This document shows, piece by piece, positions 1,976 to 57,950 of a stretch of 64,000 nt of DNA. The notes under the pieces were generated by a model, which made no database searches, was not told the origin of the DNA, and was given only the letters and a program-made list of their open reading frames with translations. The position numbers and the translations under genes were made by a program. The stretch comes from Torpedo marmorata (taxonomy: Eukaryota), in contig OZ360239.1 in the NCBI GenBank assembly GCA_977017645.1, positions 61,628,001 to 61,692,000 on the forward strand, in the 5' to 3' direction. Positions within the stretch are counted from its first letter, which is position 1, and each line of letters begins with the position of its first letter.

Positions 1976-3342
1976 TCAGTCCTTTTCAAACTGAAGACAG
2001 TTTTTCTCCAAGCTGGATTGCTGATTTTTAATAAAAGACACTTTAAATCATAGATATATACATGTGCCATAAACACCATTTATCCTCCCTTAGCTAATCT
2101 GCAAACATAAATCATCTCCCTCTGGTTGATTATGGGCTCCCTCTATAAATGGGCATGCTTTAAAAAAGAGAATTAATAATTCAGCAATTCACACCATACA
2201 AGTTTTAATGACATTTTTACACAAGACGTGATTACACAAAATTAGTGTTAGTGTCACATGATCCTGAAAACGGAAAATCCTGCTTCATTGCTCCCATTAC
2301 TGTATTCTTCTTTGCATTTACTTCCCCACACATTTTCTGAAGCTCTTCCTTTTAAGCAAACCAGGAACACAAGATGTAAAGCTGGTTCATATGTATAGCC
2401 ATGAAGCTATTACACCCCACTTGTTACGGCAGCAAATTTCCTAGATTACAATCAAACAGAGGAAGAAAAACGCTAGAATTTTATTTTTACCATGTGACTC
2501 ACTGTTAGATATATGAAAGAGAGCCAAGCTTAGCAAAGATATTCTCCCTAAGGTCATATTGCTTGCCAATCAATTCTCAAGTTTCATATGCATGAGGGTA
2601 CCAAAGCCCACGAAGCTATCGATCAATACAAGCCTTACTCCAAGAAAGCTGGGGGATAAAAATGAAACAAAAATGTACGCAATTTGTATTGGATTGTGAC
2701 TTTGAACTTCCAAGAATGTGTTCACATTGAAGGCTGATGTGGTGACAAGCTTTCTTATTCGAGTGGGGATTGAAAATTCAAATTTCATGAACAGCAGGAA
2801 ATGAAATACCAGAGTGCCAATTTAAATAAAAAATAGCAACATTCATTCCTTGTACATGCAAATAATGGATCATTGCAGCAAACATATTAATTTGATATAT
2901 ACATATTAATTTCATGGAGAAATCCATTTTGATCACCTCTGACCACCCCACACAGCTGATCAACTGAACGGAACTTTAGGTATATCAATCAATGGCTGTG
3001 TTGGTTAACTTGAGAGCAACATCCTCTGGTAATGTTCCAGCTTTAGTCGCTCCCATACTATAATCTGTGTATATTCTATTTAGCTGCACAAGTAATTATT
3101 CAAGAATATATATTTTTACTGGGTTTTTTTCCAGTTAAACAGTCTCATCAGATATTGGGAAAACATTTGATAACTAAAATTGACTGGAAATATTAGTTTT
3201 AAATATTTTAAATGTTGTTAATATACTAGAGCATTGGTCAGATGACTCTCTATTTTAATTCTATGTCATCAACAATATTGATACCAGTAAAATGAAGCAG
3301 CAATGTAATATTACTTTTTGCATTATCTCTAAAGAGGAATTA

Positions 3343-29745: not shown

Positions 29746-29790
29746 AGGTTGTATATTTTGTAATGGTTTTTATGTTTTACATCCAGAAAC
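29746..29790 (-). CDS. PTEN: PTEN-family coding exon 3 (45 bp)
   Basis: tag|G TTT CTG GAT...AAC CT|gtaagt, translating to (K)FLDVKHKNHYKIYN(L). It is 45 bp as in PTEN and phase-compatible with exons 2 and 4. Confidence 0.97.
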
Positions 29791-37547: not shown

Positions 37548-40056
37548 ACAGGGTGGTTTTGCTTTACATAATTTCAGGAATTATTATTGGGCTGCTAACA
37601 TTAAATTTATTAATATTTGGATACATTTTAAGAATTATCAAGAAAGTTTTAAATGGATGAAATCAGAAATGAAGGTTATAGGTAAACATTCGTTAGTATC
37701 CATATTAGGAATGCCTTCACCCTTTAAATATTCCAAAATTTCTAATAACAAGATAGTTAAACAAATGTTAAAAATATGGTTCCAATTCAGAAAAGCAAAT
37801 AATTTCCTTAATTTCTTGCTTGATCGTACAATAAATTTCAATACCTTTTTTACCCCAGCTAGTGGGGATAGAGGGTTCCAGATTTGGCAAGATCACGGTA
37901 TATGTTCATTTAAAAACTTGTTTATAGATTCTAATTTTATTACTTTTGAACAATTGGTTAATAAGTATAACTTATCTAGAAACAATTATTTTAGATAGTT
38001 TCAAGTTAGGAATTTTATAAATTCTTTGAGATTGGAGTTTCCTTTAGATTTAAAGTTAGAAAAGGTTTTTACTATCACTCCTGATATACCAAAACCATTG
38101 TCAGTATTTCAAGATTCAAGATTCAATTTATTGTCACAGCAATAAGACAGTGTCATATACCACGAAATTTCTTTTTGCCTGCTGCAAAGCAGACAGATTC
38201 GCCACCGGCAGAAATTGCCCAAGCGCCTCTAACATTCCTTACAGTCAGAGAAAGAGAAGCAAAAGAGAGTCCCCCCAAAGTCACCGAGTGTCCATAGATT
38301 CGCCTCCAGCGCTTCCACAGCCACACAGAGTCCAGTCCAAACGATCGGCATCCTGAGCTCCAGATCTGAACCTCCAACACGGTCAGGTCGCCCTCGGCAC
38401 CCCCTCACATCCCGGGTTCCGATACCTGGTACTCCTCCAACCAGTTCGAGCCAACCTCCAGCAGTCCGCAGCCCGTCGTGAGTCCCCCGACAGCAGTCTC
38501 CAGCAGTCCACAGCCTCCGCGGGTTCCTCGCCTCGAGTCGCCAGCAGCCCACTGCATGCACTGGTCCTTCAGCCTCAGAGCCCCTCACCAGTCCGCCGCT
38601 GCGCTCACCGTCCCGTGGGTCGTCTCCTCCGCTTCTCCTTCTCAGACGGGGGTGATCTTCCCGTCCACTGGTGCCCTGCTCCAGTCCCCCGCTTCCCCGG
38701 AGTCTGCAGCCCCTCGTGGCTGCTGCCGATTAATAGGCGCTGCCATCTTGGGCGCAGACCCCGCGGTCGCGGGATCTCAAATAAAACAACCGTCGGCTCC
38801 TTTAACGGGCCGTTCAAAGCCCGTGCGGAACCTACGGCAGTCGACTGGGCGGCTGGACCCCGCGGGAGCGCTGTATCTCCACTCCCACGCTGCTCGCGGG
38901 TCCGCACCAGCAGCAGCGCTGCCGTTACAGATGCTCCGGCAGCGCCGCCATCAGTGATGTTCTTCAGCGGTTCACTGGCAGGAAGCGTCAGCTACAGGAG
39001 TCCTTGATCTGAAGTCCAAACCAGGCCAATATTCAAGTACAGGCGTTGGTGACTGGCCATATCAACCCATGAAATGCTCTATGACCTGCGAGCGCGACCG
39101 GAGAAACCGGTCACGGACGCTGCAGGTTTCCCTCGGGAAAGAAAATGAAAATGTGATACAGCATGTGGATAAAATAAAGGAGGCTTGGGAAAGAGATTTT
39201 TTAGAAGTTTTTTCACCTTCAGTGTGGTCCAATATTTTGGACCGTATCCATACCTCTTATGTGCAAGACATAATTTAATTCAATTCAAAGTAGTTCACAG
39301 AGCTCATTACTCGAAATCTTTACTGGCTAAATTTTCATCAAATATATCATCTGTGTGTGACAGATGTAATGTTCATGAAGGTACATTATTTCACATGTTT
39401 TAGTTGTGCCCTAAGTTAGTTAGATTTTGGAACTAAAGTTTTTGTACTCTTTCTTTGGTTTTAGCTACTCAATTAGATCCAAATCCACTTATTGCAATAT
39501 TTGGTATAAATGATCCTAGTAATCATGATCTTACTAATAATCAAAAACATGTGATTGCTTTTTCTTCTCTGGTTGCAATCCTCCTATATATGAAGATTGG
39601 CTATCAAGTTTAATGTCCTATTTAACATTAGAAAAGATTAGATGTTCAAATATTAAATTAAACCTAAAATGTACTAATATTTGGGGTTCCTTTATCGACT
39701 ATTATCAGAGTTTATGATTCCTCATGATTTGAAGTTATATTATTTCTACAGGTCAGTGCAATTCTGGGATGGGGGTAGGTGGTAGGCTAGTTTAGATTGC
39801 TTTAGCTTTGATTAAAAAAATGTATTATGATGAAATTACTATTTTTTTTTGTGGTTTAGTTCTTTTTATACCTATTGGTATAATACTAAATTGTAAAGAA
39901 AAAAAATTGATATATATCTGTAATGTATACTCTGTTATGGATGGATTAATGGAACATGTGATAATGCTTTTCTTTGCTTTTTTTTCTGTAAACGTATATA
40001 GTGAATGAACTGTTATATCCATGATTTTATGGAATTAATAAAGAGATTTTAAAAAA
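37548..40056 (+). mobile_element. Older L1-clade LINE 3' part, split by the 38110-39140 element
   Basis: GGFALHNFRNYYWAANI and LCARHNLIQFKVVHRAH...CDRC....GTLFHMF zinc knuckle, with stops. Confidence 0.85.
38110..39140 (-). mobile_element. GC/CpG-rich non-autonomous retroelement with a Rex1-like tail
   Basis: The minus-strand 3' end GTGACAATAAAA(TTGAATC)n resembles the Rex1 tails in this window. It has no credible ORF and is homologous to 24985-25380. Confidence 0.7.
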
Positions 40057-41109
40057 GTTGTCTATCATAATCCCCTTTTTTTCAGGAAGCAAACTTTTGG
40101 AAAAAAATTGTTGTCTAGTGTTATTACAAACTGAATTTCATACACTAAACTTGTTACCTTTGTAACAATTCTACAGCAACAATTACATTTCATGAATTTA
40201 TTAATCACACTGTCACAATGTGAGATTTTAAGTTATTGATAGGGCTGGGGATGGGGAAGAGGAAACAAGCAATGAGATGATGCTATGTTCTTTTATCAGT
40301 TCTATGACTGAATGAACATAAACTTGATTTGAAATGGAGAGGATCAAATAACCACAAATTGAAAAATGTTGATCCGTCTGTAATCTTGCAGCACAATTCA
40401 ACCATAAAAAAATAATGAATCACAATGGATAAAAATCAAATCCTACTAGAAGTGGTAAAGGCTTGTCTCTTATCTATATTTCCACTGGGGGGTTGGGGGG
40501 GGGGGTAGAGGGGAGAAAACGGGTGTGGGGTAGAAAAAGTACTACTTACCTATTGGGATTTTCATTGGACTCCACTAATTGAGAGGTAAATTGTACTCAT
40601 TGGCTAATAACCAGTTACTTTCATGGAAATGCCCACTTCCTATCCAACTTCTAATCATCTCGTTTTGCCTAAACATGGATAGCCCATGGTCAGTGCTTCA
40701 CTGTGTTGCTGCAAACCGTAGCAATTTAAATAGAATTTCAGTGGGGAAAACTAAAGTAGCAATGTGCCCAATATTTATGAAAGGCCAACACAATTCTGGT
40801 CCCCAAGACATAGCACAGTGACCAGCAAGCAACTTCTAAATGCAAAGGGGGTGGGAGGTAGCGACTGCACGAATACGAGGTCTAAGAAAAATATCATGAA
40901 TCCTTGAATGTTCAGGGTACTTTTGCTTCTTTGTCTTGTAGTGGGAATTTTAACATATTGGACCTGTACCTTCCTTGCTCAAAGTAGATTTAATTTGGTT
41001 GATTGAATTGCTGCCCTGCATTTGAAATTACCTCAAAATCAGGAAGTTGCTTCAGAGTTCAACAAACAGTTATTTTAACTACACTTCAAGATATTGCAAT
41101 TGTGTAGCT

Positions 41110-41741
41110 CAGGGGCGGGCAACCTTTTACCACGTGTGGGCCAGATGGTGTGTCAGTGGTTGAACGGCGGGCCGCACCGATGCTGCCAGTAATTAAAAAA
41201 TAGTAATTTCAATTATTTCTTGCCTGGGGTCTCTTGGCTAATGACATAACCAGGGGATGCCATCTTTAAATTCAAGATGGCGACGCACCACTGACCCTCC
41301 GCAACAATAGAAGGTAAAAAAAATACTGCTGCCAGGGCAGATTCTTTTCAACGTTCCCCCCCCCCCTCCGCTTACTTGCAGCTCAGCTTTTTCTGCTTCC
41401 CATCGTGCTTTCTCCATCTCGAAATGCGCCCACTCGTGCTGAATGAAGTGCAAAATCCCTGGCACGGTGTACGCGTCAGGCTCGCTGTGGTTATCCAAGG
41501 TGATTTTCTCCAGCGCCACCGGAGACGGGCTTGGACAGCCCGCGTTGCCGCCCGCTCGCCAAAGTCATGGCGGCCGACCGCCCGTCCATTCTACAGCTCA
41601 TCCCCCTGCCAAATAGTAGGAGCCCCGCTGCTTGGGTGCGGCGAGCTTGCACACTGATGGGCGGCGGCGCAGGGAAAGACTTTTGCATTGGGTTGCGGGC
41701 CGTATAAATTTGGATCGCGGGCCGTAGTTTGCCCATCCCTG
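41110..41741. mobile_element. Non-autonomous hAT element carrying a captured striatin exon (Pack-type element)
   Basis: TIRs CAGGGGCGGGCAACCT / AGTTTGCCCATCCCTG, perfect 8-bp TSD GTGTAGCT at 41102-41109 and 41742-41749, and GCGGGCCG subterminal motifs. Confidence 0.93.
41376..41589 (-). pseudogene. Captured striatin (STRN4-like) first coding exon with its splice donor, one frameshift
   Basis: MDGRSAAMTLAS / GGNAGCPSPSPVALEKITLDNHSEPDAYTVPGILHFIQHEWAHFEMEKARWEAEKAELQ|gtaagc matches the striatin N-terminal motif PGILHFIQHEWARFE.EKARWEAERAELQ. No further striatin exons were seen. Confidence 0.9.
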
Positions 41742-41999
41742 GTGTAGCTCCTTAAATGTAAAATTTTCTTAAGGCGAATCATTCAAATGTTTCTGAATCC
41801 AAGTCATATCGGGAGACAGCAAGGCAGATAGCCAAAGCTTGGTTAAAGGGATAGACACAAATGGTCTCTCAAAGGAAGCAGGGGAGGAAGAAGACGGGTT
41901 GAATAAGAAAATTCAAAGCAGCAGGCCTTTACAGATGAAGGCACAGTATGAGCAACCACGGAAGTTAAATTTAGGATGTCCAGGAGGTCAAAATGTAAA

Positions 42000-42268
42000 T
42001 TTTTAATTTAAAAAAAGTTAGACATACAGCACTGAAACAGGCCAATTCGGCCCTACGAGTCTGTGCCTCCCAATTTACACCCCATTAACCTACACCCCGG
42101 TACGTTTTTGAAGGGTGGGAGGAAACCAGAGCTCCCAGAGCAAACCCATGCAGACACAGGGAGAACGTACAAACTCCTTACAGACAGCGCGGGATTCGAA
42201 CCCAGGTCCGGTCCCGATTGCTGGCGCTGTAAAGGTGTTGCGCTAACCACTACGCAAACTGGGCCGCC
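42000..42268 (-). mobile_element. tRNA-derived V-SINE (HE1-like)
   Basis: Close homolog of 13778-14051, with B box GGTTCGAATCCC. Confidence 0.88.
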
Positions 42269-44764
42269 AACAGCAGACAACGTAAAAGACTGCATACCTA
42301 CAGAAAATTATGGACGTGGGATTGGTCAGAATCATGTAGGAATTTGAAAAAATGAAGCACATTTTCAAATAAGACAATGTAGGTCAAAGTTCTTGTACAT
42401 CATTAATCACCTTTCTCCTCCTTCCTCCCCGCCTCAGTAGAAATGCAGAAGTCAATTTTACTTAGTATGACTTATTTTTATCCATTAATAAATTTTTATC
42501 TTGCATTGTGGATTTGTATTGCAGTGGTGAGAAGGAAACACAATTTGTTAAAGAGTTTGGGCAGAGGCATGGTTTGACTTCACATTTACACAAGGTAGAA
42601 TGAGGAGGTCTAATCAAATGTGTATTGGAAAGCTCATATTTCAATGTACCAAAGCATGAACAAGGGTTTCAGCAGCGTATTAGACGAGGCTGAGACTGAG
42701 CCAAGGATATCAATTATGTACATAATCTAAAACAGGAGAGATCAGCAAATGCAATTAAAAACAAAATAGGTAAATTAAATGTTCCTTGTTTTTTTCTATC
42801 TTGCTACTTGGATTAAGCATACAAATTGCACATCGGAACCTGATGGATTCAAGATGAATAAAATAAGCAGCAACAGTAAATGCACTCTGGAAAATAATTT
42901 GAAATGTCAATTTATGAAGATCTTTCAACCTTAAATGAGGCAGGCAACCTAACAAATGCAAAAAGGGGGTCTTAACTACAGAGATAAATGTTTCCAATGG
43001 ACTTTTGCGATGGAAACCAACGACATTGGTCTTCAATGCCCATCAAGCAATATCTGGTCAATGAAAGAAATTGCTGTGAAGAAAAAAGGCATGGTTGAAC
43101 TGGCATGTTCCCCCCCCCCCCCCCACCGCCAACCATCTCTCTCGCTCCCTATACCTATGTCTCCTTTCCTCCAGCTCCCCACCCCTTGTCTCTCTCTTCC
43201 CCTCTCCCTCCTTTCCTCCAGTTCTGCATGCACAGAACTACCCCCGACCAATTCTCAACTTTTCTCTCCTGCCCATGTGCAAATGAAATATCTTTGCCTC
43301 CTATGGACTCTGCAGGACCTGCTGGGTTTCTCTAGCATTTGTTTATTTACTACAATCACAGCGCCTGCAGACTTTCTTGTTTCGCAACAGTTTTCTTCAA
43401 TATTGTTGCCAAAATGACCCACAAAAACTTAACAGATGAGGGATGAGGACAGATCTTCATGGCCCGCAAATAGTACAGCATGAAAGCAAGAAGAAATGCC
43501 AATGCAGATATTCCTCTGGCTGCAACTGAATAGCAGCAGTGGGAGTGTTAGGCAAGGTGTGACAAAACTGGCTAAGAGCAGAAAATTGTTGCACAAATTT
43601 CAGTTTATGCAGTCTCATTATAAGAGTTAACAACTCCAATCAAATGTATCCTTCCATAGGAAGTTCAAATTCTACCCATGAAAAGCCCATTTAGATAAAA
43701 CCAAATTTCCAGTTGATACAAGTGTGTCCCATGCGATGTCAGTTATCAGGCAAATACAAAGTAGCAACCAAAGTATTCAAAGCATACTTTAAATGGTCAA
43801 TTTTTAAAAACCAGCATCTCACACATCTTCAGTATACCCTGCTGGATATTCATTGGAATTTAATCTTGTTGGCCATTCAAATGCAAATATATATTTATTT
43901 TACTGATTAAAAGAATGGATATAAACTGCATTCATCAAATAAAATGAAGCCTGGAGACTGAATGTACATCTTCAGTTTCAATGAAACTGACCAGTTTTGA
44001 TTTAACATTGATTGTTGCCGATCCTTTGCATTGAGTATTGATCAATAATTGCTAAACTAAATATGCCCCAAAAACATTCCTTAAGATGTCCTGGAATTAT
44101 TTGTCTTCGTAATTATTAAGGACATTTTATAGGATGTGGGTACAGGAACCTCAACAAATGGATTCTCTCAAGGTTTATGGTAAAATACAGTCTAGCTGCA
44201 TCTATACATTTTGGAGATTAAATACAAATTGCACATGGAAGCTCAAGATGCAGCAAACAAAATCAATTGTACAGCAATATAAAATAGGAAGCAGTGACAG
44301 TAAATGAATCCTAGGTTATTCAAAAGATTGAGGAAGATATGTCAACCTTAGATTCTTAATGCACAAAAGGCAAGAACCACTGAAAACAGATTTTATTGAT
44401 TTATTTTGAATTTTCATGGAATCTTTTCTGTTTCAGGTTATTAATGTCCTCGATGTGCCAGATTGTATGTAACTCTGGCTTCTATCCACAAGGGGGATAC
44501 CAGTGATCTTATACAGTAAACTAAACAGGAATTGCTTTAAGGTACTTCTTGGCTTGGTTTGACATCCATGCCAGATAATGCATAGATGCAAAAAGTAATG
44601 AGAATGCACAAGGAACTTTATTAAAGATTGTTCAGCGCTAGCTTGAAAATTATAAGGCTCAGAGAAAACACTTGCATTATTTCCATTATTTTGATATTCC
44701 TTTTGTCTTCATGACCATAGTTTTCATCACACTCAAGATGAAAACTATTGTTGTGAAGACAAAA

Positions 44765-57845: not shown

Positions 57846-57950
<105 letters not shown>

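Follow-up and report, generated by a model that had tools for sequence, protein, structure and literature searches.

High-copy gene capture by cut-and-paste transposons has rarely been documented in vertebrates. A survey of 100 animal genomes reports only four multicopy Pack-TIR cases (1.4%) and, for the elephant shark, no multicopy case (PMC8277862). The pipeline described there required 90% identity and a unique best match, so it may miss high-copy families. Within that account, Pack-hAT-N8_XT of Xenopus tropicalis has three copies, and it resembles the element of Torpedo marmorata that we describe here in that both enclose host 5' sequence, copied as DNA, between hAT ends (the 5' UTR of CAPSL in Xenopus), with distinct target site duplications (TSDs), positions far from the donor and microhomology at the junctions (PMC8277862). 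Plant Pack-MULE and Pack-TYPE elements (Pack-hAT) share with the ray family a non-autonomous structure with terminal inverted repeats (TIRs), heterogeneous GC-rich cargo and a source in open-chromatin genes; the ray family differs in belonging to a cartilaginous fish and in that each traced element carries cargo from one gene only (PMC5861414, PMC8903248). A further study compared alongside Pack-MULEs concerns a plant (PMC6839031).

A hAT element carrying a striatin first exon in PTEN

The window analysed here is the whole stretch of 64,000 nt. Inside it, a non-autonomous hAT element of 632 nt occupies positions 41110-41741 and carries its cargo on the minus strand. Its host gene is PTEN, also on the minus strand and recognised by matches to PTEN chains in the PDB (E 2e-36 and 3e-12). 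The PTEN exon upstream of the insertion lies at 57847-57931 and ends in phase 2, and the downstream exon lies at 29746-29790; by the usual exon numbering, the insertion falls in intron 2. A perfect 8-bp TSD, GTGTAGCT, is read directly at 41102-41109 and 41742-41749 on the plus strand, and the TIR arms at 41110-41125 and 41726-41741 are complementary at 13 of 16 positions. A 1.9-kb stretch of the window holds 137 pairs of 16-nt imperfect inverted repeats, and the TIR alone is not above chance; we take it as real because TSDs accompany the family, being perfect in 20 and within one mismatch in 27 of 40 two-ended striatin copies. Direct reading and these family TSDs together bear out the element as the preliminary description had drawn it, with imperfect 16-nt TIRs and a perfect TSD.

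Read along the minus strand, the element opens with 59 nt of hAT 5' end (41683-41741), followed by a captured CpG-rich leader 5' of the ATG (41590-41682; 5' UTR or proximal promoter), whose first four letters (41679-41682) are a word common to transposon and donor at the left junction. The captured STRN4-like coding exon 1 follows at 41376-41589 (214 nt here, 210 in most copies), and then the start of striatin intron 1 at 41195-41375, with an intact GT donor. A short filler at the right junction (41189-41194), which repeats cargo letters about 10 nt upstream and is present in 19 of 22 copies, leads into 79 nt of hAT 3' end (41110-41188), corresponding to nt 2954-3032 of a 3.0-kb parent element (L141).

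The coding stretch begins with an ATG at 41589 and ends at a GTAAGC donor (41375-41370), and the peptide between them, which had been called striatin from the letters alone, matches Pfam Striatin (PF08232) at E 3.7e-11 and human striatin-3 chain 7k36_B at E 4e-14. Its best matches are shark and ray proteins named 'striatin-3-like', at 80% over the whole query, and these put the genome with the cartilaginous fishes. The reading frame of this copy is broken, as first described; the cause is a 4-nt insertion at about 41557-41560 and not an indel near 41553, and the ATG frame runs through it to an early stop at 41493-41491. The copy also lacks 84 nt of its intron piece at 41332/41333 relative to another copy (L004). 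Further striatin exons, which the preliminary description thought might mark a real nested gene, are absent from the 64-kb window, where the full-length protein P0001 matches only 41555-41376. Rfam gave no matches within 40500-42400. Very high-copy repeats flank the element at 40000-40190 and 42000-42270, the latter probably a SINE.

Since PTEN is also encoded on the minus strand, the striatin cargo lies sense to it. The PTEN intron is in phase 2 and the striatin exon ends in phase 0; therefore an in-frame fusion is not expected. We take this copy to be a passenger within PTEN intron 2.

The donor gene and its relation to the cargo

A Pfam family search of the genome (G000) found three native striatin genes having both exon 1 and exon 2, on contigs C40, C25 and C74. 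The C74 gene alone matches the cargo end to end, at 88% over 600 nt for copy L004 and, for the window copy, at 85% over 365 nt and 93% over 142 nt; the two other striatin first exons reach merely 72-74% over 100 nt. The match crosses the native junction of exon 1 and intron 1, which upholds the earlier proposal of capture at the DNA level as opposed to a retrocopy. The donor stretch (G000:C74:26260592-26261183, 592 nt) has no TIRs, and exons 2 and 3 of its gene lie about 30 kb downstream of exon 1, with 97% and 84% identity to P0001. So delimited, the cargo starts with 94 nt of leader, takes in all of coding exon 1 and its GT donor, and runs about 275 nt into intron 1. The CpG observed/expected ratio is 1.13 in the donor island and 0.39 in the window copy. 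The 60 kb read about this donor contain no family end, a result that neither supports nor excludes a local origin.

The cargo peptide had been called closest to STRN4, and STRN4 as the identity of the donor now appears likely on sequence comparison, because the C40 exon 1 carries the human STRN3 motif and the C74 type has a segment, shared by its shark orthologue and coelacanth STRN4, that is absent from human STRN3. The databases do not follow this naming and call C74-type proteins 'striatin-3-like'. We also observed that the native C74 exon 1 (L061:4824-5090) shows an insertion of 12 nt and a change from Trp to Phe, neither of which occurs in the transposon copies or in other sharks and rays. 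The copies keep older donor states, with residues as in other sharks and rays at places where the ray's own gene has changed.

A subfamily of dispersed and decayed copies

A DNA search with the element returned 1,731 candidates, the best 40 of which were scored, all spanning the exon-bearing half. A protein search gave 77 matches among 88 candidates, at 74 places, three of them the native exons, and a 26-nt exon pattern with at most one mismatch gave 53 matches, one being the native gene (control 0). We checked 49 distinct striatin copies, 40 with both TIRs; they lie on many contigs in unrelated flanks, and among the 27 TSDs with at most one mismatch, 26 are distinct, the fourth letter is T in 26 and the fifth is A in all 27. 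This is a mobile family and not a one-off capture, as had been suspected. Striatin cargo accounts for 5 of 72 sampled family ends (about 7%), the sample being the first exact matches on contigs C1 and C2, positional and not random, with 30 ends read only 1.5 kb inward; applied to 1,041 end matches in the genome, this share gives an estimate of about 70 striatin copies.

The tree of the copies (46 of 50 rows, those below 450 nt being left out) is star-like and has no starred branch. Because the right junction is common to 19 of 22 copies and the tree has this shape, the alignments suggest one capture and one burst for the striatin subfamily. Across 48 copies, differences from the column majority amount to 3.0% outside CpG and 14.7% at CpG. 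The preliminary description had proposed that the family may be spreading; the many mobile copies agree with this, and the present tense does not hold, since the star-like tree and the 3% non-CpG divergence place the spreading in the past. The donor differs from the same majority at 26 of 479 non-CpG sites (5.4%) and at 1 of 94 CpG sites. Being further from the majority than the copies are outside CpG, it leaves room for a capture that may predate the burst.

The ratio pN/pS outside CpG is 1.12 (172 non-synonymous and 28 synonymous changes, 49 copies pooled) and 0.93 in the conserved half; pooling in this way would hide selection on one or two copies. Over all sites it is 0.54, which we put down to the decay of CpG in synonymous positions. 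CpG loss is heavy in every copy, the minimum being 7.5%. Given a CpG loss of 14.7% set against 1/94 in the donor, and the non-CpG pN/pS of 1.12, the copies appear to have decayed neutrally, with no selection detected in the pooled set. An intact ATG, frame and GT are found in 17 of the 49 copies, and the GT donor is kept in 45. Three copies (L017, L047 and L069) are broken by later insertions of at least 1 kb, and L017 retains a perfect TSD around 1,743 nt.

In DNA contigs of a related organism (X2), the flanks of the window element are about 95-96% alike and 15 contigs cover the cargo at 41595; on account of these 15 contigs the subfamily is probably shared with that organism. Similarity in one X2 contig starts at precisely 41742, and 94 more letters of that contig do not continue into the element end, at most a hint of an empty site; among the matches listed, none gave a joint across the insertion site. 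A contig set presumed to be RNA (X1) has one 449-nt contig over 41398-41724, in which no splicing or transcription is evident.

The parent transposon

The 1,041 matches mentioned above were obtained with a 24-nt pattern from the hAT 3' end (control 0). End-sharing copies with a transposase C-terminus pointed to twenty loci, seven of which have both ends. Two of them are full-length elements, L141 (3032 nt) and L130 (3004 nt), whose ends are those of the striatin element and which have 8-bp TSDs. They answer the search, proposed at the outset, for an autonomous hAT with the same TIRs in so far as they are of autonomous length; as the longest copies examined, both have broken open reading frames. 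Of the parent, the striatin element retains 59 nt at the 5' side and 79 nt at the 3' side, and the other 95% or so has been replaced. At the left junction four letters are held in common with the donor, and at the right the short filler repeats nearby cargo.

Transposase pieces of the parent match the DUF4371, FAM200-GTF2IRD2-like and hAT dimerisation families, and the transposase is 81% identical to a GTF2IRD2-like protein of Narcine (best match) and 64-65% to those of skate. By sequence similarity, the parent is a GTF2IRD2-like hAT, presumably of the Charlie/Buster type. Like TcBuster among the GTF2IRD2/SPIN-like (Charlie/Buster-type) hATs, the ray family has an 8-bp TSD of the form nnnTAnnn, which matches the consensus given for TcBuster in PMC3499496.

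Two further features were observed. In L141:1324-4355 the transposase ATG seems to be preceded by a non-coding first exon and an intron (GT/AG by eye), and the host cassettes take the place of this region. A Narcine protein of 1,261 aa (P0022) joins a GTF2I repeat and HTH/CENP-B domains to a region 81% identical to the ray transposase, an architecture reflecting either a fusion or an annotation artefact.

Other cargos of the same family

In the same positional sample of 72 ends, the cargo classes were A (16), B (12), G (5), striatin (5), C (4), F (4), D (3), E (3) and Tigger-like (1), with 19 ends of no class. Class D is a PRKAG2-like exon 1 with its donor (27 candidates at 26 places, 25 copies, among them L123 and L188-L206); PRKAG2 is an AMPK subunit gene. 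The native locus (L203:1128-2193; G000:C5, minus strand) has no family ends, and exons 2 and 3 of the native gene follow downstream after about 205 and 280 kb (L385, L392). The cargo comprises about 300 nt of upstream sequence, an 84-nt exon that is 93% identical to a named PRKAG2-like N-terminus, and its donor, followed by some 680 nt of intron. The exon is intact in 7 of 21 long copies, and CpG change is 12.5% in 21 copies as against 2/108 in the donor. At one residue the donor gene has Thr, and most copies have Met, as does Pristis. A PDB search with the 28-aa exon gave no matches, and an assignment of class D as a kinase piece was rejected, the exon being the PRKAG2-like N-terminus.

Class E (53 candidates, about 50 copies, including L125, L126 and L152) has a TIR-less locus (L303:1077-1611; G000:C44, minus strand) with a CpG island, an ATG, a 13-codon exon behind a long GC-rich tandem repeat, and a GT. 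This native locus is rearranged relative to the cargo, and no downstream exon was recognisable by eye in 120 kb of it. From these features class E is probably a third captured CpG-island gene start.

The remaining classes are mixed. Class C is a deletion derivative and class A is rich in simple repeats, while class G and the Tigger-like class hold pieces of other transposons. Class B (L161, L160, L101; 12/72) is the largest CpG-rich class and has a possible exon and GT donor in antisense. Class F (L103, L105, L329-L367) is CpG-rich, with CCAAT- and GC-box-like motifs and GT donors, and in some copies it is joined to the transposase 3' part. A class F donor was not found, all 39 places fetched (from the best 40 of 89 candidates scored) carrying family sequence. 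Class H was rejected as a captured promoter or gene start: 5 of 40 places lack family ends, and the three end-less places viewed are a different short TIR repeat with 3,402 candidates. That second repeat (L311:885-1211, L312, L315) has a GT donor on the reverse strand and is in part nested in class H; it bears YY1-like and TCTCGCGAGA motifs, and it may itself carry a captured promoter, at far higher copy number.

Two named genes and one candidate support 5'-end capture by this family, and the repeat-piece classes speak against a general rule. A bolder reading would make the hAT a systematic first-exon snatcher that prefers sense CpG-island gene starts (STRN4-like, PRKAG2, the third gene and perhaps classes B and F), leaving more than 100 cassettes of leader, ATG, exon and donor, some giving chimeric transcripts or N-terminal fusions; we consider this doubtful.

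Origin of the striatin element

We favour, at a probability of roughly 80%, a history in which the striatin cargo was captured once by template switching during gap repair, was then mobilised in trans to about 70 sites and afterwards decayed without detected selection. This reading builds on the element's boundaries, the donor locus, the junctions, the parent, the many insertions with their own TSDs, the CpG loss and a pN/pS near 1. At a family member, a strand that was under repair or had stalled would have switched to the open striatin CpG island at the 4-nt shared word, copied some 590 nt of the striatin locus and returned onto the transposon 3' end via the short templated filler; the capture could also have hit an already shortened derivative. 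The 59 and 79 nt of ends would have been enough for mobilisation, and the family transposase likely moved the element in trans in a single burst that was then silenced. The decay of CpG suggests germ-line methylation of the copies. PRKAG2 exon 1, and probably the third CpG-island start too, would have been captured independently by this hAT family. Near-terminal breakpoints are expected from excision-induced gap repair, according to PMC8277862, and we favour gap repair because about 95% of the parent was replaced and both breakpoints lie near the termini. The 4-nt microhomology at the left junction is weak evidence for such a switch.

The intact exon in 17/49 and the GT donor in 45/49 copies would also be compatible with exaptation, in which some copies act as portable alternative first exons or promoters that splice into neighbouring genes. 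The window copy is sense to PTEN, and at least 30% of animal Pack-TIRs are reported as transcribed chimeras in PMC8277862. We regard such a role as improbable, given the pooled pN/pS near 1, the heavy CpG depletion of every copy and a captured sequence of only 94 nt 5' of the ATG. In the window copy, moreover, the frame is shifted and stopped, and the phase-0 exon would meet the PTEN exon out of frame.

The junctions bear on a second alternative, the tandem insertion proposed for plant Pack-TYPE elements including hATs in PMC8903248. Two members would have flanked striatin exon 1, and their outer ends would have been excised together, with internal deletions following. TcBuster, a related transposon, inserts near transcription start sites (PMC3499496), and the donor allele could since have been lost. 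Neither junction, however, shows a remnant of an inner TIR or TSD, and both lie inside parent sequence, so two exact extra deletions would be needed. Family ends are likewise absent from the 60 kb at the striatin donor and from the regions read at the PRKAG2 and third donors, and we hold tandem insertion to be quite unlikely. A processed retrocopy, a segmental duplicate between hAT ends or a nested real gene has protein likeness in its favour and nothing more, and is practically negligible in view of the kept intron 1 start, the missing exon 2 and the lack of poly(A) (retrocopy), the 26 distinct TSDs on many contigs in unrelated flanks (duplicate) and a window free of other striatin exons (nested gene).

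Comparison with known systems

The striatin element has the hAT features that we tested, namely an 8-bp TSD and TIRs common to the transposase-bearing L141 and L130, and also the tested features of a multicopy Pack-TIR: cargo above 100 bp, a donor without family transposons, a kept intron and recurrent transposition. A search of literature listings, mostly outside subscription journals, found no paper on this ray hAT family or on striatin capture. With parent, donors and junctions in one genome, gap repair versus tandem insertion and a bias to open chromatin are directly testable. The copies will also confuse gene annotation and read mapping at STRN4 and PRKAG2.

The ray family stands apart from the cases of PMC8277862 in its numbers, with 49 striatin copies checked and a total put at about 70, and in carrying a coding first exon entire with its splice donor, which it has done for two named genes or more. 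Its 5'-end capture resembles that of the bat Helitrons HelibatN3-NUBPL and kin (PMC4224331). Those Helitrons move by rolling circle and number about a thousand in the NUBPL case; the ray hAT, with its TIRs and 8-bp TSDs, moves by cut and paste and has tens of copies for each cargo. In this ray, a single hAT family has multiplied the entire first exons of two or more conserved signalling genes, each to tens of copies. It is a vertebrate Pack-hAT of high copy number that resembles the bat Helitrons in capturing 5' ends, and it extends to a vertebrate hAT a kind of capture known from them and from plant Pack-MULEs.
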